This document shows, piece by piece, positions 1 through 5,406 of a DNA stretch of 5,406 nt; the first letter of the stretch is position 1; every line of letters starts with the position of its first letter. The notes below the pieces were generated by a model, which was given only the letters and a program-made list of their open reading frames with translations, did no database searches and was not told where the DNA came from. The position numbers and the translations under genes are program-made. The stretch covers positions 1 to 5,406 of IMG/VR virus record IMGVR_UViG_3300028532_000031; one strand, 5' to 3'. The DNA is from a virus. Lineage: Duplodnaviria; Heunggongvirae; Uroviricota; Caudoviricetes.

Positions 1-2
1 AT

Positions 3-1256
3 CCGGTACTGACGCGCCAGCTACTGATAGCAGGCGGTGCGTTGCTGGCAATGACTGCAACGATTGGCTCGTTGTCGCTGGTTATTGGGGTGCTTTACGG
101 GAAGCTGGCCACCCTGCGTCTTGGTTTTGACATTCTTACCCGGTCAATGAATGTCGTCAGGGTGTTGCCTGCGCTGTGGGGAATGCTGACGGGTTCCGTT
201 TCTTTACTGGGAGGCGCTATCGGGGCGCTGTTCAGTCCGGTTGGTCTTATCGTGGCTGCGCTTGCCGGAGCTGCTGTTCTTATCTGGAAATACTGGGATC
301 CCATCAGGGCATTTTTTGCCGGGGTGTTCAGCGGGATTATGGAAAGGCTGACCCCGTTGCGCGAAACCTTTGAACGGTTTGGTCCTGTTTTTGACGCAAT
401 CGGAAGCGGGATCAGCCAGGTGTTTAACTGGTTTAAATCGCTGCTGTCACCGATGGAGTCCAGCAAGGAAACGCTGGATAAATGTACCAGTGCTGGCGAG
501 ATATTCGGTAACGTTCTTGGTGGCGCGCTACAGCTTGTTCTGACGCCTGCAAAAATGTTGCTGGATACGCTGGCGTGGATACTTGAAAAACTCGGTGTGC
601 TTCCGGATGAAGCGGAAAGGGCGAGAAAGAAAATCGAAGACGCACAGCGTGCGGCCATTCTTCAGGACAAGGTTGCCTTGCTTCAGGGGGACCTGGCGAA
701 AATCAATCCGCCGAAGCCTGTGGAAAATAGCAATGGCACCGGAGGTGATAAACCCAAAGACAATAAACCGCTCACAGACAGCAATACCGGTACGCTGCGC
801 AGACTCAGCAAAATTGCTGATAACACAGGTAAGCTGGTTGATGAGACGAAAAAACGCATTGGCCCCGGCGATATTGTCTTTAAGAACCTGCCCCGCGCAC
901 TTGCTGTTCGTGGGGAGTGGCAGGAGCGGAAGATTGCGCAGGTCAGTAAGCCTGCCCCCGCAATTAATATCACACCCGTGGTCCCGGCTCCGCTGCCTCC
1001 GGCGCTGGTCCCTGTTGTTGCGGCCAGCTCCCGCCCGGTGGCGGAGGCCATACGATCGCCAGTGGCATCAGTTCCTGCAACTTCCCGTAACCGGGAGCCT
1101 GTTGCCTCCGGATTTGGCGGTGAAATTCATGTTCATCTGCATAACGTTGTTACGCAGAATCCCCGCGAACTGGCGAAACTGGTCGGTGAAATGGTCAGGG
1201 CAGAGGTGGAACGGCGCGCCCGTGCCGGACGTGGCAGTTTTTACGATAAAGATTGA
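3..1256 (+). CDS. Phage tail tape measure protein, C-terminal portion (5' end truncated by window edge)
   Basis: The reading frame is open from nt 3 with no in-frame stop before the window start, so the gene begins upstream; the ORF-track TTG at 42 is not a real start. Translation has long hydrophobic Gly/Ala/Leu segments (e.g. GAIGALFSPVGLIVAALAGAAVLIWKYW) and a Pro/Ala/Val-rich low-complexity stretch, as in tape measure proteins. It sits immediately upstream of a gpU-like gene, matching the P2 T-U order. Stop TGA at 1254-1256. Confidence 0.55.
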   Translation, partial: PVLTRQLLIAGGALLAMTATIGSLSLVIGVLYGKLATLRLGFDILTRSMNVVRVLPALWGMLTGSVSLLGGAIGALFSPVGLIVAALAGAAVLIWKYWDPIRAFFAGVFSGIMERLTPLRETFERFGPVFDAIGSGISQVFNWFKSLLSPMESSKETLDKCTSAGEIFGNVLGGALQLVLTPAKMLLDTLAWILEKLGVLPDEAERARKKIEDAQRAAILQDKVALLQGDLAKINPPKPVENSNGTGGDKPKDNKPLTDSNTGTLRRLSKIADNTGKLVDETKKRIGPGDIVFKNLPRALAVRGEWQERKIAQVSKPAPAINITPVVPAPLPPALVPVVAASSRPVAEAIRSPVASVPATSRNREPVASGFGGEIHVHLHNVVTQNPRELAKLVGEMVRAEVERRARAGRGSFYDKD

Positions 1257-1262
1257 GGAGTC

Positions 1263-1757
1263 ATGATCATGATGATGATCTACGGCATGTTTGTTTTTGA
1301 GCTGCGCACACTGCCGCATCAGCAGTTACAGCAAAACAAAAGCTGGCGGCATGTGAAAAATGAGCGCGTAAACCGCTCAGCAAGCTGGCAGTATATCGGT
1401 GCAGGTGATGATCGCATCGTGCTTTCTGGCGTGCTTTATCCTGAAATTACAGGTGGCGAAGTGTCGCTTTCGCTGCTGACCACGCAGGCATATACAGGAC
1501 GCCCCTGGCCTCTGATTGATGGTGTCGGGCAGATTTACGGCATGTATGTACTGACTGAAACGAATACGACCCGCTCCGAGTTTGATCGCTACGGTAAGGC
1601 GAAAAAGATAGAATTTTCACTGACTCTTGAACGCTGTGATGAGGATTTGCGGGAGCGCCTGCAATCCTCATCGTTCAGTGATATGCTGTCCGGCTTCAAA
1701 GATAAGGTCACATCATCCCTTAACAGCGCGGCCAGCTCCGTTAAAGGGCTGTTTTGA
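1263..1757 (+). CDS. P2 gpU-like phage tail protein
   Basis: 164-aa ORF with the pattern FVFELRTLPHQ...GAGDDRIVLSGVLYPEITGG...GRPWPLIDGVGQIYGMYVL, which I recognise as the phage P2 tail protein U family. GAGGAG at 1255-1260 is only 2 nt from the ATG at 1263, so the true start is more likely the ATG at 1269 or 1272. Stop TGA at 1755-1757. Confidence 0.7.
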   Translation: MIMMMIYGMFVFELRTLPHQQLQQNKSWRHVKNERVNRSASWQYIGAGDDRIVLSGVLYPEITGGEVSLSLLTTQAYTGRPWPLIDGVGQIYGMYVLTETNTTRSEFDRYGKAKKIEFSLTLERCDEDLRERLQSSSFSDMLSGFKDKVTSSLNSAASSVKGLF

Positions 1758-1764
1758 TTAACGC

Positions 1765-1794
1765 AAAACCGCTAATGGTCAGATTAGCGGTTTT
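1765..1794. terminator. Bidirectional intrinsic terminator hairpin between convergent gpU and invertase genes
   Basis: Perfect 12-bp inverted repeat AAAACCGCTAAT (1765-1776) / ATTAGCGGTTTT (1783-1794) around a 6-nt loop GGTCAG. On the plus strand it is followed by TTTTCATTTT; the A-run in the left arm gives a U-run for the minus-strand transcript. It starts 8 nt after the gpU stop and overlaps the invertase stop codon (1784-1786). Confidence 0.5.
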
Positions 1795-2383
1795 CATTTT
1801 CCTGAGTCTGCCTGGTTGTTTCTTCAGCCTGTATATCGCCTACAGGGTGATAACGATAAATCGTCGATATGCCGATGTCGTAAATGATCGCCAGTTGTTT
1901 CCTGTCATGACCGTTTTTAATCAGCCTCGCTATTTGCTCGTGTTGTTCTTTTGTCAACTTCGGGCGACGTCCGCCAATGCGTCCTTGTGCGCGTGCTGCT
2001 GCCAGTCCGGCCAGTGTACGCTCTACAATTAATTCACGTTCCATTTCGGCTAAAGCCCCCATGACGTGAAAAAAGAAACGCCCCATGGGTGTTGATGTGT
2101 CAATGCTGTCCGTCAGACTACGGAAATTAACACCTTTTTCCCGCAATTCCTCAATAAGCGTAATCAGGTGTTTCATACTTCTGCCCAGTCTGTCCAGCTT
2201 CCAGACAACCAGCGTATCTCCTTCTGATAGCGTTCTGAGCAGTTTTTTCAATCCCGGTCTGGCTGATTTCGTTCCGCTGATTTTATCTTCAAAAATCAGT
2301 TCACATCCTGCGCAGTTCAGTGCATTGCGTTGTAAATCCGTGTTCTGGTCATTTGTTGACACACGAATATAGCCAATTTGCAT
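1784..2383 (-). CDS. Serine DNA invertase (Hin/Gin/Cin/Pin family site-specific recombinase)
   Basis: 199-aa product starting MQIGYIRVSTNDQNTDLQRN, with the catalytic Ser in the RVSTNDQ motif, ...VVWKLDRLGRSMKHL..., ...SPMGRFFFHVMGALAEMERELI..., and a C-terminal helix-turn-helix (QLAIIYDIGISTIYRYHP). It is near-identical in pattern to Gin/Hin as I recall them. Start chosen at the ATG at 2383-2381 because AGAGGA (minus strand, 2397-2392) lies 8 nt upstream; the ORF-track extension to 2593 has no such support. Confidence 0.92.
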   Translation of the reverse strand: MQIGYIRVSTNDQNTDLQRNALNCAGCELIFEDKISGTKSARPGLKKLLRTLSEGDTLVVWKLDRLGRSMKHLITLIEELREKGVNFRSLTDSIDTSTPMGRFFFHVMGALAEMERELIVERTLAGLAAARAQGRIGGRRPKLTKEQHEQIARLIKNGHDRKQLAIIYDIGISTIYRYHPVGDIQAEETTRQTQENENR

Positions 2384-2397
2384 AAAAAACATCCTCT

Positions 2398-2961
2398 TTG
2401 TTTCGTGAAAAATACATAGTTGGTATAGGTAGGGATAAAAACGAAAACGTTGGTTTGGGGGAAGGCTCTGCGCTGCCCGTTGGAGTGCCCGTTCCATGGC
2501 CCTCAGCCACGCCGCCAACGGGGTGGCTGAAATGTAACGGCGCAGCATTTTCTTCTGAAGAATACCCGGAATTGGCAAAGGCTTACCCGACAAATAAATT
2601 GCCTGATTTACGCGGTGAATTTATCCGTGGCTGGGATGATGGGCGTGGTGTGGATGCGGGGAGAGCAATATTATCAGCTCAGGGCGATGCCATACGTAAT
2701 ATCTATGGTGAGTTCAGAACTGTAAATACTGAAAATTATTCAATATGGGAAGGAATGAGCACGTTTAAGGGGGCTGTGGTGCCTTTAAATCCCTCCACAA
2801 ACAATAGTTATTTCTCCTTAGTCAAAAGTATGGTGACTGAAAGGGCAGACGGCGCTGTTTACCCAAAAGTGATCGGCCTTGATGCTTCAAAAATTGTTCC
2901 AACTGCAAATGAAAATCGCCCACGCAACATTGCGTTTAATTACATCGTAAGGGCGGCATAA
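2398..2961 (+). CDS. Tail-fibre C-terminal cassette 1 (startless, promoterless alternative receptor-binding segment)
   Basis: No ATG or RBS; the ORF-track start is a TTG. Encodes a phage tail-collar-like region (PVGVPVPWPSATPPTGWLKCNGAAFSSEEYPELAKAYPTNKLPDLRGEFIRGWDDGRGVD), then a unique central segment, then the shared C-terminal end ENRPRNIAFNYIVRAA. The NIAFNYIVR-type end is one I recall from enterobacterial side tail fibre proteins. Confidence 0.75.
   Translation: MFREKYIVGIGRDKNENVGLGEGSALPVGVPVPWPSATPPTGWLKCNGAAFSSEEYPELAKAYPTNKLPDLRGEFIRGWDDGRGVDAGRAILSAQGDAIRNIYGEFRTVNTENYSIWEGMSTFKGAVVPLNPSTNNSYFSLVKSMVTERADGAVYPKVIGLDASKIVPTANENRPRNIAFNYIVRAA
2413..2440 (-). promoter_or_regulatory. 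Candidate sigma70 promoter for the invertase gene, adjacent to putative crossover site 1
   Basis: On the minus strand: -35-like TTTTAT (plus coordinates 2440-2435), 16-nt spacer, -10-like TATGTA (2418-2413), about 30 nt upstream of the invertase ATG. Both hexamers are weak matches; this is a by-eye call only. Confidence 0.25.
2444..2465 (+). other. Putative invertase crossover site (copy 1, invertase-proximal) containing the 22-bp motif AAAACGTTGGTTTGGGGGAAGG
   Basis: The motif recurs at the 5' boundary of every plus-strand cassette. Its right half GGTTTGGGGGAA is the reverse complement of TTCCCCCAAACC, which resembles the Hin/Gin half-site consensus TTnTCnAAAACC. The inner part AAAAC-G-TT-GGTTT is partly palindromic. 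Copy 1 carries an extra in-frame AAAACG immediately 5' of the motif. Confidence 0.45.
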
Positions 2962-2982
2962 AAACGTTGGTTTGGGGGAAGG
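2961..2982 (+). other. Putative invertase crossover site (copy 2), AAAACGTTGGTTTGGGGGAAGG
   Basis: Exact repeat of the 22-bp motif, 517 bp after copy 1. It overlaps the stop codon of cassette 1 and begins the cassette 2 reading frame. Confidence 0.45.
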
Positions 2983-3433
2983 CTCTGCGCTGCCCGTTGG
3001 TGTACCTGTTCCATGGCCCTCAGCCACACCGCCAACGGGGTGGCTAAAATGTAACGGAGCAGCATTTTCTTCTGAAAAATACCCCAAACTGGCAAAGGCT
3101 TACCCAACGTTAAAATTACCGGATTTACGGGGTGAGTTTATCCGTGGCTGGGATGACGGACGTGGTGTGGATGCCGGGCGACAATTATTATCTTCACAGG
3201 GGGATGCAATAAGAAATATTGAGGGGTTCGCAGATGGCGGGATCGGCATGTCTTTTGATGCAATCAGAGGGGCTTTTTACGATGCAGGAACACGATCTGC
3301 GAGAATGCCGAATAACACAACTGATATAGGCAAAACCGATGACCTTGGATTCGACGCCTCTCGTGTCGTGCCAACAGCTAATGAAAACCGTCCTCGTAAT
3401 ATTGCCTTTAATTATATCGTAAGGGCGGCATAA
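2972..3433 (+). CDS. Tail-fibre C-terminal cassette 2 (startless)
   Basis: Same architecture as cassette 1: conserved collar-like 5' part, divergent middle (…GFADGGIGMSFDAIRGAFYDAGTRSARMPNNTTDIGKTDDLGFDASR…), conserved end ENRPRNIAFNYIVRAA. Begins in frame within motif copy 2; the ORF-track start is a TTG. Confidence 0.75.
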   Translation: MGEGSALPVGVPVPWPSATPPTGWLKCNGAAFSSEKYPKLAKAYPTLKLPDLRGEFIRGWDDGRGVDAGRQLLSSQGDAIRNIEGFADGGIGMSFDAIRGAFYDAGTRSARMPNNTTDIGKTDDLGFDASRVVPTANENRPRNIAFNYIVRAA

Positions 3434-3454
3434 AAACGTTGGTTTAGGGGAAGG
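3433..3454 (+). other. Putative invertase crossover site (copy 3), AAAACGTTGGTTTAGGGGAAGG (one substitution)
   Basis: One-mismatch copy of the motif, 472 bp after copy 2, overlapping the stop codon of cassette 2 at the boundary with cassette 3. Confidence 0.4.
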
Positions 3455-3473
3455 TTCGGCGCTGCCTGTTGGT

Positions 3474-3911
3474 GTGGCCGTTCCATGGCCCTCAGCCACG
3501 CTGCCAGCGGGGTGGTTGAAATGTAACGGCGCAGCATTTTCTTCTGAAATGTACCCCAATCTGGCAAAGGCCTACCCCACCAATAAATTACCGGATTTAC
3601 GGGGCGAATTTATTCGCGGCTGGGATGACGGACGGGGCGTTGATAATGGGCGCAACCTACTGTCTGCACAGTCTGACGCTATTCAGAATATAGTTGGCAC
3701 TTTTGGGCGTACTCAGCTTTTTAAAGATGCGTTTAATTCAGGACCATTTAGTCAAACTGACTCTATATTATCAGTAGGCTTACAACCAACTGAGATCATT
3801 GAAGGATATGGTGCTTCTGTATGGACATTCGACGCCTCTCGCTCAGTTCGCACAGCATCTGAAACACGCCCCCATAACATTGCGTTTAATTACATCGTAA
3901 GGGCAGCATGA
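3474..3911 (+). CDS. Tail-fibre C-terminal cassette 3 (startless)
   Basis: Same architecture; divergent middle (…GTFGRTQLFKDAFNSGPFSQTDSILSVGLQPTEIIEGYGASVWTFDASR…); ends ETRPHNIAFNYIVRAA. The in-frame reading extends back through motif copy 3 (KNVGLGEGSALPVGV…); the ORF-track start is a GTG. Confidence 0.75.
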   Translation: MAVPWPSATLPAGWLKCNGAAFSSEMYPNLAKAYPTNKLPDLRGEFIRGWDDGRGVDNGRNLLSAQSDAIQNIVGTFGRTQLFKDAFNSGPFSQTDSILSVGLQPTEIIEGYGASVWTFDASRSVRTASETRPHNIAFNYIVRAA

Positions 3912-3932
3912 AAACGTTGGTTTGGGGGAAGG
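3911..3932 (+). other. Putative invertase crossover site (copy 4), AAAACGTTGGTTTGGGGGAAGG
   Basis: Exact copy of the motif, 478 bp after copy 3, overlapping the TGA stop of cassette 3 at the boundary with cassette 4. Confidence 0.45.
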
Positions 3933-4380
3933 CTCTGCGCTGCCCGTTGGTGTACCTGTTCCATGGCCCTTAGAAACACCGCCAACGGGGTGGCTGAAAT
4001 GTAACGGCGCAGCATTTTCTTCTGAAATGTATCCCAGACTGGCAAAGGCCTACCCCACCAATAAATTACCGGATTTACGGGGTGAATTTATTCGCGGCTG
4101 GGATGATGGGCGCGGGGTGGATGCCGGAAGGGGCATCTTAAGCATGCAGGGGTGGTTAACAGGAAGTCATTATCATAATATTCGGTCATGGGATGCGTGG
4201 GATAACACGGTACTGGTGCCAAATGACAAAGGAGGGGATAGTCTGTTGTCGACAGATAACGCCGTCCGGCAAGGTGCAATTAACGGTAGATTTACCAGTC
4301 AATACAGAACGGAATCCTCAGAGGGGAATGAAACCCGCCCACGCAATATTGCCTTCAATTATATTGTGAGAACCGCATAA
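3922..4380 (+). CDS. Tail-fibre C-terminal cassette 4 (startless), translationally coupled to the tail fibre assembly gene
   Basis: Same architecture; divergent aromatic/His-rich middle (…GWLTGSHYHNIRSWDAWDNTVLVPNDKGGDSLLSTDNAVRQGAINGRFTSQYR…); ends ETRPRNIAFNYIVRTA. Its TAA stop (4378-4380) overlaps the ATG of the next gene (TAATG). Confidence 0.75.
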   Translation: MGEGSALPVGVPVPWPLETPPTGWLKCNGAAFSSEMYPRLAKAYPTNKLPDLRGEFIRGWDDGRGVDAGRGILSMQGWLTGSHYHNIRSWDAWDNTVLVPNDKGGDSLLSTDNAVRQGAINGRFTSQYRTESSEGNETRPRNIAFNYIVRTA

Positions 4381-4991
4381 TGAATAACGCGATATTAAAT
4401 GATGACCTTATTGCCGTACAGGCAGGAAACATCGTCGTTTATAACTATGATGGTGAGACACGGGAATATATTTCCGAATCAACTGAATATCTTGCTGCGG
4501 GTGTCGGTATTCCGGCAAATTCCTGTTTAGATGCCCCGGGCGCACATAAAGCGGGCTATGCTATCCGCCGTTCGGAGAATTTAAATTCATGGGAGTATAC
4601 GCCAGATCATCGTGGTGAAACCGTCTATAGCACTGATACGGGAAACACCGAAGAAATCACGACGCTGGGTGACTACCCGAAAAATACAACCACTATCGCC
4701 CCGTTAACACCATACGATAAATGGGATGGTGAAAAATGGGTGACGGATACCGAGGCACAGCATAGCGCCGCAGTAGAAGCGGCAGAAACACAGCGCCAGT
4801 CGCTGATTGATACTGCAATGGCTTCCATTAGTCTGATTCAGTTGAAGTTGCAGGCCGGGCGGAAGTTGACGCAGGCAGAAACCACCCGGCTTAACGCCGT
4901 GCTGGATTATATAGACGCACTGAACGCAATGGATATAAACATGGCATCAGATATCAACTGGCCGGAAATACCACTGGCAGCAGCCAGTTGA
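4380..4991 (+). CDS. Tail fibre assembly protein (Tfa chaperone; P2 gpG / Mu U-like role)
   Basis: 203-aa ORF directly downstream of and overlapping a tail-fibre cassette, the classic fibre-chaperone position. The C-terminus has the Tfa-like …DINWPEIP… pattern. Family assignment is from position and recalled motif, not a search. Confidence 0.65.
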   Translation: MNNAILNDDLIAVQAGNIVVYNYDGETREYISESTEYLAAGVGIPANSCLDAPGAHKAGYAIRRSENLNSWEYTPDHRGETVYSTDTGNTEEITTLGDYPKNTTTIAPLTPYDKWDGEKWVTDTEAQHSAAVEAAETQRQSLIDTAMASISLIQLKLQAGRKLTQAETTRLNAVLDYIDALNAMDINMASDINWPEIPLAAAS

Positions 4992-4997
4992 ATATAA

Positions 4998-5406
4998 CTA
5001 AGCCGCCCTCACGATATAGTTAAATGCAATATTGCGGGGGCGGGTTTCACTACCACCTGTGTTACCAATACTTCCTCGTGAATGAAGCGTTGGTGATGGA
5101 ATCAAACTCCCTCCTGTATTTGTGGCATCAAGCCCCCTGCCTTGTGTATATGTTTTTTTGAAAATCGTGGCCAACTCCCATTCATCCTTTGTGTCATATC
5201 CATCGTTAGCTACAACAATATGGCGGTGTTTTTCCAACATCCCGGTTTGAATGCTCAATAAAGCGCGTGCTGCATCAATTCCTCGCCCATCATCCCAGCC
5301 ACGAATAAATTCACCCCGTAAATCCGGTAATTTATTGGTGGGGTAGGCCTTTGCCAGTCTGGGATACATTTCAGAAGAAAATGCTGCGCCGTTACATTTC
5401 AGCCAC
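4998..5406 (-). CDS. Tail-fibre C-terminal cassette 5, inverted orientation; 5' end continues beyond the right window edge
   Basis: The minus-strand frame is open to the window end and reads …WLKCNGAAFSSEMYPRLAKAYPTNKLPDLRGEFIRGWDDGRGID…, then a unique middle, then SETRPRNIAFNYIVRAA with stop TAG (plus 4998-5000). The ORF-track start at M5369 is internal. The first 123 nt are the reverse complement of cassette 4 (3990-4112) with one mismatch. Confidence 0.8.
   Translation of the reverse strand, partial: WLKCNGAAFSSEMYPRLAKAYPTNKLPDLRGEFIRGWDDGRGIDAARALLSIQTGMLEKHRHIVVANDGYDTKDEWELATIFKKTYTQGRGLDATNTGGSLIPSPTLHSRGSIGNTGGSETRPRNIAFNYIVRAA

Follow-up and report, generated by a model that had tools for sequence, protein, structure and literature searches.

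How many alternative tail-fibre tips can a single serine recombinase offer a phage, and through what arrangement of DNA? The question is raised by a 5,406-nt stretch of viral DNA (IMG/VR record IMGVR_UViG_3300028532_000031; hereafter the window), within which positions 1784-5406 make up the locus studied here. A preliminary description of this stretch, made from the letters alone, had placed a Gin/Hin-family serine invertase beside four tandem, co-oriented, startless fibre cassettes and one inverted cassette, had predicted at least five tips chosen by inversion, and had located the constant fibre gene on the minus strand, past the right edge. Our analysis indicates that the locus is very probably a Min-type multiple DNA-inversion module in a P88-like (Xuanwuvirus, P2-family) Escherichia coli prophage. 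For comparison, we typed the cassettes in about 45 related loci, along with 178 crossover sites; the relatives include 20 complete E. coli genomes in which 80% or more of the window finds a match at a single location and 20 further loci retrieved by exact-protein look-ups with the tfa (tail-fibre assembly) and invertase products.

Each cassette opens with the sequence AAACGTTGGTTTRGGGGAAGG, which has four matches in the window, all on the plus strand, and none in 200 shuffles. The crossover sites in the window are 26 bp long, with a 12-2-12 layout around a TT core, and are present as four direct copies. Site 1 (2438-2463, plus strand; AAAACGAAAACG-TT-GGTTTGGGGGAA) marks the invertase-proximal end, and its outer half-site is confined to that end in every related locus that includes it. 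Site 2 (2955-2980; GGCATAAAAACG-TT-GGTTTGGGGGAA), site 3 (3427-3452; GGCATAAAAACG-TT-GGTTTAGGGGAA) and site 4 (3905-3930; AGCATGAAAACG-TT-GGTTTGGGGGAA), all likewise on the plus strand, share the consensus (G/A)GCAT(A/G)AAAACG-TT-GGTTT(G/A)GGGGAA, whose left half overlaps the stop of the preceding cassette (for site 2, the stop codon of cassette 1). On the opposite side of the invertible DNA, where the constant part of the fibre gene H meets the current cassette, the relatives carry the junction TTCTTGATTACC-TT-GGTTT.... The 12-2-12 layout is also that of Mu gix (TTATCCAAAACC-TC-GGTTTACAGGAA), and the sites of prophage Phi2 in E. coli EC958, TCCTCAATTACC-TT-GGTTTAGGAGAA and GAGAGATAAACG-TT-GGTTTGGGGGAA, have been listed with the Mu/P1/e14/p15B consensus (PMC4134206). 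Judged by their letters, the window sites are of this published 12-2-12 invertase-site kind. There are more than two of them, four in the window and at least one beyond it, and the relatives have between 2 and 9.

Two sites show irregularities. Just left of site 1, at 2432-2449, the stretch preceding AAAACG-TT is GGGATAAAAACG, which looks like the internal left half-site GGCATAAAAACG displaced by 6 nt and may have been left behind by an earlier cassette end. In one relative (L004, at about position 7534), the site before the '155' cassette carries a 1-nt core deletion (AAAAACGTGGTTT) that turns TT into T and should lock that site. A site-like match in the tape-measure gene of the relatives ('short62') was discarded; it is without a recognisable outer half-site.

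The sites delimit cassettes that encode fibre tips. The window contains four direct copies of a unit of about 300 nt (family D1), spaced 517, 472 and 478 nt apart, and each of the four corresponding plus-strand cassettes is an open frame that starts at its site and closes at a conserved ...NIAFNYIVR(A/T)A stop: cassette 1 ('171' type, 2446-2961), in frame from site to stop; cassette 2 ('156' type, 2963-3433); cassette 3 ('158' type, 3435-3911); and cassette 4 ('155' type, 3913-4380), whose stop overlaps the start of tfa (ATAATG). Cassette 5 ('161' type, 4998-5406), on the minus strand and associated with inverted repeats I1-I5, is truncated where the window stops. Of these repeats, I1-I4 (133-159 nt, 82-92% complementary) link its N-terminal part to each of the four direct cassettes. 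The visible frame is open, with the first 25 or so codons and the crossover site beyond the window; this minus-oriented partner site is expected about 75 nt past the end and is present in every related locus reaching that far. The complete '161' cassette of relatives is 161 codons long and connects with either a further cassette or the constant fibre gene itself (L005, L011, L019, L022). The Phage Tail Collar domain (PF07484) was found in all five cassettes, with E values of about 1e-14 to 1e-15 for the four direct ones. We found no ATG or ribosome-binding site at the cassette starts, for which 'startless' is an apt term, and the TTG starts proposed by gene callers fall within the crossover site.

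For the variable and C-terminal parts of cassettes 1-4, comparison with the most divergent orthologues of each yields dN/dS values of about 0.16, 0.09, 0.22 and 0.15, respectively. These values indicate that cassettes 1-4 are under purifying selection and are not decaying. Cassette 4 matches the T4 gp37 tip 2XGF (E=6.5e-15) at both extremities, the collar at its start (residues 8-72) and the terminal NIAFNYIVR, which enclose the variable part, and it aligns over its full length to the short tail fibre 9CUY (E=1e-17). Drawing on the gp37 structure, we would regard the conserved head and tail of each cassette as a collar scaffold and the variable middle as a predicted receptor-binding insert.

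The cassettes also differ in small motifs. An HxH motif akin to the metal-binding motif of gp37 is found in the window only in the two cassettes flanking tfa, as SHYH in '155' (4150-4175) and as KHRH in '161' (about 5200-5215, minus strand). It is not found in types 171, 156 and 158, and it is present in two types seen only in relatives, 170 (DHAH) and 180 (AHRH). Within the head of cassette 4 (3961-3970), PLETPP (cccttagaaaca) stands in place of the PSATPP of all other cassettes and most relatives; in the contig L029 (see below), this variant adjoins the end of a 158 cassette.

What the cassettes are joined to becomes visible in the relatives. As the preliminary description had supposed, those that extend far enough carry a constant fibre gene to the right of the cassettes, on the minus strand (L001, L003-L011 and L014-L025; 95-99% identical). 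Its product, H, has 450-580 aa and Phage_tail_fib/Phage_fiber_2/Collar domains. In every typed locus, the two outer half-sites keep their places irrespective of the adjoining cassette, the invertase-type half closing the left end and the H-type half the right. Cassette-specific bases, by contrast, begin 6 nt right of the core and travel with the cassette: the '158' signature GGTTTA...GGTTCG follows its cassette behind invertase-type, internal and H-type left halves alike. Because these bases move with the cassette, the exchange point is placed within the 7 nt TTGGTTT. The core is TT in 178/178 typed sites. A polarity rule holds in every typed locus: cassettes left of tfa point right, and those right of tfa point left.

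All nine main cassette types, including the five of the window, were found fused to H in relatives. The '158' type is the commonest at this position (nine loci), followed by '161' (five), '155' (four), '171' (three: L024, L044 and L045) and '156' (one, L025). Some relatives differ by simple rearrangement, L010 being L005 plus one inversion. L025 has exactly the five cassette types of the window, at 98.7-99.5% identity, and is two inversions away from it; with the nine types fused to H, this bears out the predicted choice among at least five tips. An independent isolate assembly (L026, GCA_032664485.1) has the same cassette order as the window, with 99.96% identity and 2 mismatches over 5098 nt, and stops at window position 5098. 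Among complete E. coli genomes, none has the exact arrangement of the window, the best match covering 87% of it in pieces. A scan of viral contigs for the H-side junction returned 21 further contigs, none of them from the sample of the window. One 4404-nt viral-metagenome contig (L029, IMGVR_UViG_3300028485_000122) has unique sequence identical to window positions 951-5406, with the 155-tfa-161' core flipped (a prime denotes the reversed orientation); its junction lies inside a 105-nt perfect repeat between the '155' and '161' heads, and both L029 and the window end in the repeat.

Across the related loci (L001-L050), sets of 2 to 9 cassettes are drawn from a shared pool of at least nine types. 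Among the unusual loci, L044 carries duplicated types that point both ways, L032 has a palindromic 161-tfa'/tfa-161' arrangement, an IS has inserted into L016, and the invertase of L013 is split. Cassettes are evidently still being gained and lost, as far as such comparisons tell.

The enzyme expected to act at these sites is encoded at 1784-2383 on the minus strand, outside the invertible DNA and transcribed away from it. The gene starts with an ATG at 2383 behind AGAGG, and its 199-aa product has Resolvase (PF00239, E=1.5e-51) and HTH_7 (PF02796, E=1.4e-12) domains. The alignment of the protein with Mu Gin spans 185 residues (E=3e-91); Gin scores 307 bits and gamma-delta resolvase 112. Its N-terminal serine motif is in place, the start MQIGYIRVSTNDQ aligning with Gin MLIGYVRVSTNDQ. 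An identical protein occurs in 7224 blocks of a public collection. The domain matches and alignments confirm an intact serine recombinase of the Gin/Min family, nearer to invertases than to resolvases, in line with the Gin/Hin-family assignment first proposed.

Residues linked to the use of an enhancer are present as well. The Q-x-x-R-L motif in helix 1 of the DNA-binding domain and basic residues of helix B contact Fis and are specific to Fis/enhancer-dependent invertases (PMC3798978); in the window enzyme, QIARL (149-153) aligns with Gin QAGRL, and LKKLLR (45-50) with Gin LKRALK. A candidate recombinational enhancer lies within the invertase gene (2299-2361, minus strand), where a motif scan found two Fis-consensus matches at coding nucleotides 23-37 and 71-85. 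Their centres are 48 bp apart, some 97 bp separate the proximal one from the site 1 core, and Fis motifs start at coding nucleotides 23 and 71 in Mu gin also. The Hin enhancer has 47 bp between its Fis sites and lies about 100 bp from hixL (PMC3798978). The geometry agrees with that of Hin and is only consistent with an enhancer, the motif being degenerate.

Together, these observations suggest the following mechanism. The fibre gene H would have a constant 5′ part of about 375 codons on the minus strand, just past the right edge of the window, ending in a 26-bp crossover site. The 3′ cassettes downstream of it would be promoterless and without ATG, each opening with the inner half of a site and encoding a T4-gp37-like collar with a variable receptor-binding insert. 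The invertase would pair one plus site with one minus site, cut at the central TT, rotate the ends and religate them. Each inversion would span tfa, leaving the cassettes on its left pointing right and those on its right pointing left, and repeated inversions would permute the cassettes until any of them could be fused in frame to the constant part. Low-level invertase activity in the lysogen would then let an induced population release virions of differing adsorption specificity, presumably as bet-hedging on host range. Dependence on Fis and the enhancer, the receptor specificity of each tip, and the manner in which Tfa is supplied when its gene faces away from H are parts of this scheme that we infer. 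That the invertase catalyses inversion at this locus is supported by the natural isomers.

A formal enumeration, in which every plus site may recombine with every minus site, yields four isomers and three tips for three sites, 48 isomers and five tips for five sites, and 240 isomers and six tips for six sites; the five sites assigned to the window would thus allow 48 isomers. The three-site case has an experimental counterpart. In a P2-like prophage of the enteropathogenic E. coli (EPEC) strain E2348/69, two overlapping inversions (NC_011601, 1891695-1893703 and 1892127-1893703) have been described (PMC4272514, Goldberg et al. 2014). Paired-end sequencing and PCR revealed three repeats, three alternative C-termini and four variants coexisting in single-colony cultures (PMC4272514). 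The inversion coordinates coincide with the three sites of our locus L014, which reads invertase | 155 tfa 161' 145'-H, and the four states predicted for three sites agree with the E2348/69 result. PacBio data have likewise yielded contigs in alternative orientations for such prophage fibre regions (Forde et al., PMC4134206).

The pivot of all these rearrangements is tfa (4380-4991, plus strand; Caudo_TAP, E=1.2e-33), the only tail-fibre assembly (chaperone) gene in the locus. The preliminary description left it unnamed. It is placed between cassette 4 and the inverted cassette 5, which starts six bases past the tfa stop, and no crossover site lies on either side of it, making 155-tfa-161' the pivot unit of inversion. 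The unit is intact in nearly every related locus with both types, and both orientations occur. Because the single tfa has no adjacent site, every inversion flips it. In the window orientation, tfa is convergent with H, as it is in half of the predicted isomers, and the '161' tip can be expressed only with tfa reversed. One reading, which we regard as rather unlikely, is that the switch controls both the choice of tip and the co-expression of its chaperone, such that some tips assemble without Tfa or the isomers concerned give fibre-defective, non-infective particles. If so, the Tfa-independent tips would perhaps be the types without an HxH motif, or the '161' type. We know of no such second layer of control, through chaperone co-expression, in descriptions of Min-type systems. 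One chaperone for many tips offers a small, testable question about chaperone dependence.

Several points weigh against a Min-type switch at this locus. The window itself holds direct sites only, and both the inverted partner and the constant gene are deduced from relatives. The isomer evidence for the window strain consists of assembled contigs. We considered L029 as proof of coexisting isomers and rejected it: with its junction in a 105-nt perfect inverted repeat, the flipped core may be a path chosen by the assembler. About two chance matches to the degenerate Fis motif are expected per 260 nt. Finally, a promoter scan found no convincing promoter before tfa: the matches were no more than expected by chance, none was found upstream of the plus-strand cassettes, and the scan does not explain tfa expression. 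With tfa convergent with H and without a convincing promoter, half of the isomers may make the chaperone by some other route or not at all.

Other explanations for the arrangement can be judged by where the junctions fall and how the cassettes have evolved. RecA-dependent homologous recombination between the cassette heads (215-300 nt), and not the invertase acting at 26-bp sites, might be the main cause of the rearrangements. The heads are indeed long and 82-92% similar, those of '155' and '161' share the 105-nt perfect match in the window strain, and the EPEC study termed the repeats 215-bp inverted repeats (PMC4272514). However, homologous exchange would scatter junctions through the heads, whereas in about 45 loci location-specific sequence gives way to cassette-specific sequence within the 7 nt TTGGTTT, always with a TT core (178/178) and fixed outer half-sites. 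The module also typically comes with an invertase that is intact and shares 97% identity with the enzyme of the Min region. We consider homologous recombination highly improbable as the main cause, although the '156' cassette of the window, in which a G replaces, just to the right of the core, the A of other '156' copies, suggests some gene conversion among heads. Alongside inversion by the invertase, homologous recombination probably adds such gene conversion and, because cassette numbers range from 2 to 9, probably drives cassette gain and loss.

Still less probable is a frozen locus, in which a fibre gene has been duplicated into now decaying cassettes and genomes differ through old rearrangements that have become fixed. 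The preliminary description had itself raised decay into pseudogenes as a possibility. In some relatives (L001, L013, L016 and L019-L021), cassettes are indeed truncated, the invertase is split or an IS has inserted, and L004 has lost a core base. In the window, however, the four complete cassettes are open and the fifth is open as far as visible, the dN/dS values of cassettes 1-4 speak against decay, and the invertase is intact. Moreover, loci one inversion apart share 98-99% identity, and four isomers coexist in single-colony E2348/69 cultures (PMC4272514). The least probable explanation, in our view, is that the cassette order of the window is an artefact, a path through repeats in a short-read or metagenome assembly graph. 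The independent isolate assembly L026 has the same order over its 5098 nt, and that order obeys the polarity rule and can be reached from L025 in two inversions. These findings outweigh the suspicion that arises from the window ending exactly in a repeated cassette head, and from L029, of identical sequence with a flipped core, ending in the repeat too. Inversion by the invertase at the 26-bp sites thus remains our preferred explanation.

The surrounding genes identify the carrier. To the left, outside the switch, lie the 3′ part of a tail tape-measure gene (1-1256, plus strand), the frame of which is open at the window start and the counterpart of which in relatives encodes a 935-aa PhageMin_Tail protein, and a gene for a P2 gpU-like tail protein (1263-1757, plus strand; PF06995 Phage_P2_GpU, E=5.5e-39). 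Between the convergent gpU and invertase genes is a G+C-rich hairpin (1765-1794) with a 12-pair stem followed by a T-run; T-runs are present on both strands, and the hairpin overlaps the invertase stop codon. It is likely a bidirectional terminator, to judge from these features, and as such would shield the invertase from read-through of the tail operon. To the right, relatives reaching far enough have minus-strand genes in the order H, I, J, W, V. Phage P88 and other Xuanwuvirus genomes align to window positions 1-2377 at about 92% identity, and the window is the tail region of a P88-like (Xuanwuvirus), P2-family prophage of E. coli. Phages of this group have two convergent operons, FI-FII-E-T-U (tail) and V-W-J-I-H, with the invertase and invertible DNA between them and gene D on the far side (window 1-2383, L001/L002). 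At the same position, P88 carries a segment of the classical kind, with two cassettes and two tfa genes, and for this reason the Min-type module looks like a swapped-in alternative to it.

The locus is a further member of a long-known, experimentally supported class, a good example and not a discovery. Although right about the locus itself, the preliminary description had set its novelty too high. Conceptually there is little gain, as the shuffling of tips by a multi-site serine invertase has been known since p15B Min, the classical system of this kind, and has been demonstrated in this prophage family. A three-cassette orthologue was shown to shuffle in EPEC E2348/69 (PMC4272514). Such loci are nonetheless very common in E. 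coli, with the exact invertase present in thousands of assemblies, and they break or scramble short-read assemblies, so that cassette fragments are annotated as separate 'phage tail proteins'. Furthermore, the shared cassette pool, distributed in sets of 2 to 9 over P2-like prophages and P1-like phage-plasmids, amounts to a natural modular library of receptor-binding tips for host-range engineering.

Known switches differ from the window in their recombinase, their number of sites or their carrier. The R64 shufflon (Rci) resembles it in picking among alternative adhesin C-termini by multi-segment inversion; unlike the window, it relies on the tyrosine recombinase Rci, sfx sites and the PilV pilus adhesin. 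A domain search of the window found no R64-type features, the only recombinase being of the serine resolvase family and the cassettes having phage Collar domains. The Mu G/Gin, P1 C/Cin, e14 P/Pin and phage P88 switches share the invertase family, the 12-2-12 sites, the swapping of fibre 3′ ends and the position of the invertase just outside one end of the segment. In contrast to the window, with its at least five sites and one shared tfa, they have two sites and two cassettes, each with its own assembly gene (S-U / S'-U'). Closer still is the EPEC E2348/69 locus, which is orthologous, from the same prophage family and 95.6% identical, with the same invertase position, 155-tfa-161' core and sites. 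It differs in having three cassettes, three tips and four isomers, compared with at least five cassettes and 48 predicted isomers in the window.

The p15B switch was reportedly described around 1990, and its Min region is said to have a six-site form with 240 isomers. Compared with P1/P7-like phage-plasmids, window positions 1784-5406 match pMCR_SCKP-LL83 (L028) best, with 88% coverage and 89% nucleotide identity. According to a published report, the 5-kb invertible segment of that plasmid shares 99% identity with p15B min (PMC5786510); the link to Min rests on this statement together with our alignment to pMCR_SCKP-LL83. The carriers differ: the window belongs to a P2-family prophage and not to a P1-like plasmid, and its constant fibre part and flanking genes are unrelated. 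L028 also has nine sites compared with five visible cassettes in the window, and the C-terminal tail of the invertase diverges after residue 181. Over residues 1-180, however, the two recombinases are identical at 175 of 180 positions. L028 has the same 26-bp internal sites with a TT core and the same H-side half-site TTCTTGATTACC; cassette types 156, 155, 161, 145, 158 and 170 and a homologous tfa are present; and in both systems one constant fibre 5′ part would serve many 3′ ends. As the preliminary description had proposed, the switch is thus of Min type and uses a serine rather than a tyrosine recombinase, its invertase and cassettes being homologous to the p15B-min-like region of pMCR_SCKP-LL83. 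Because invertase, sites and cassettes all match those of L028, we regard the window module as a Min-type system in a different phage family.

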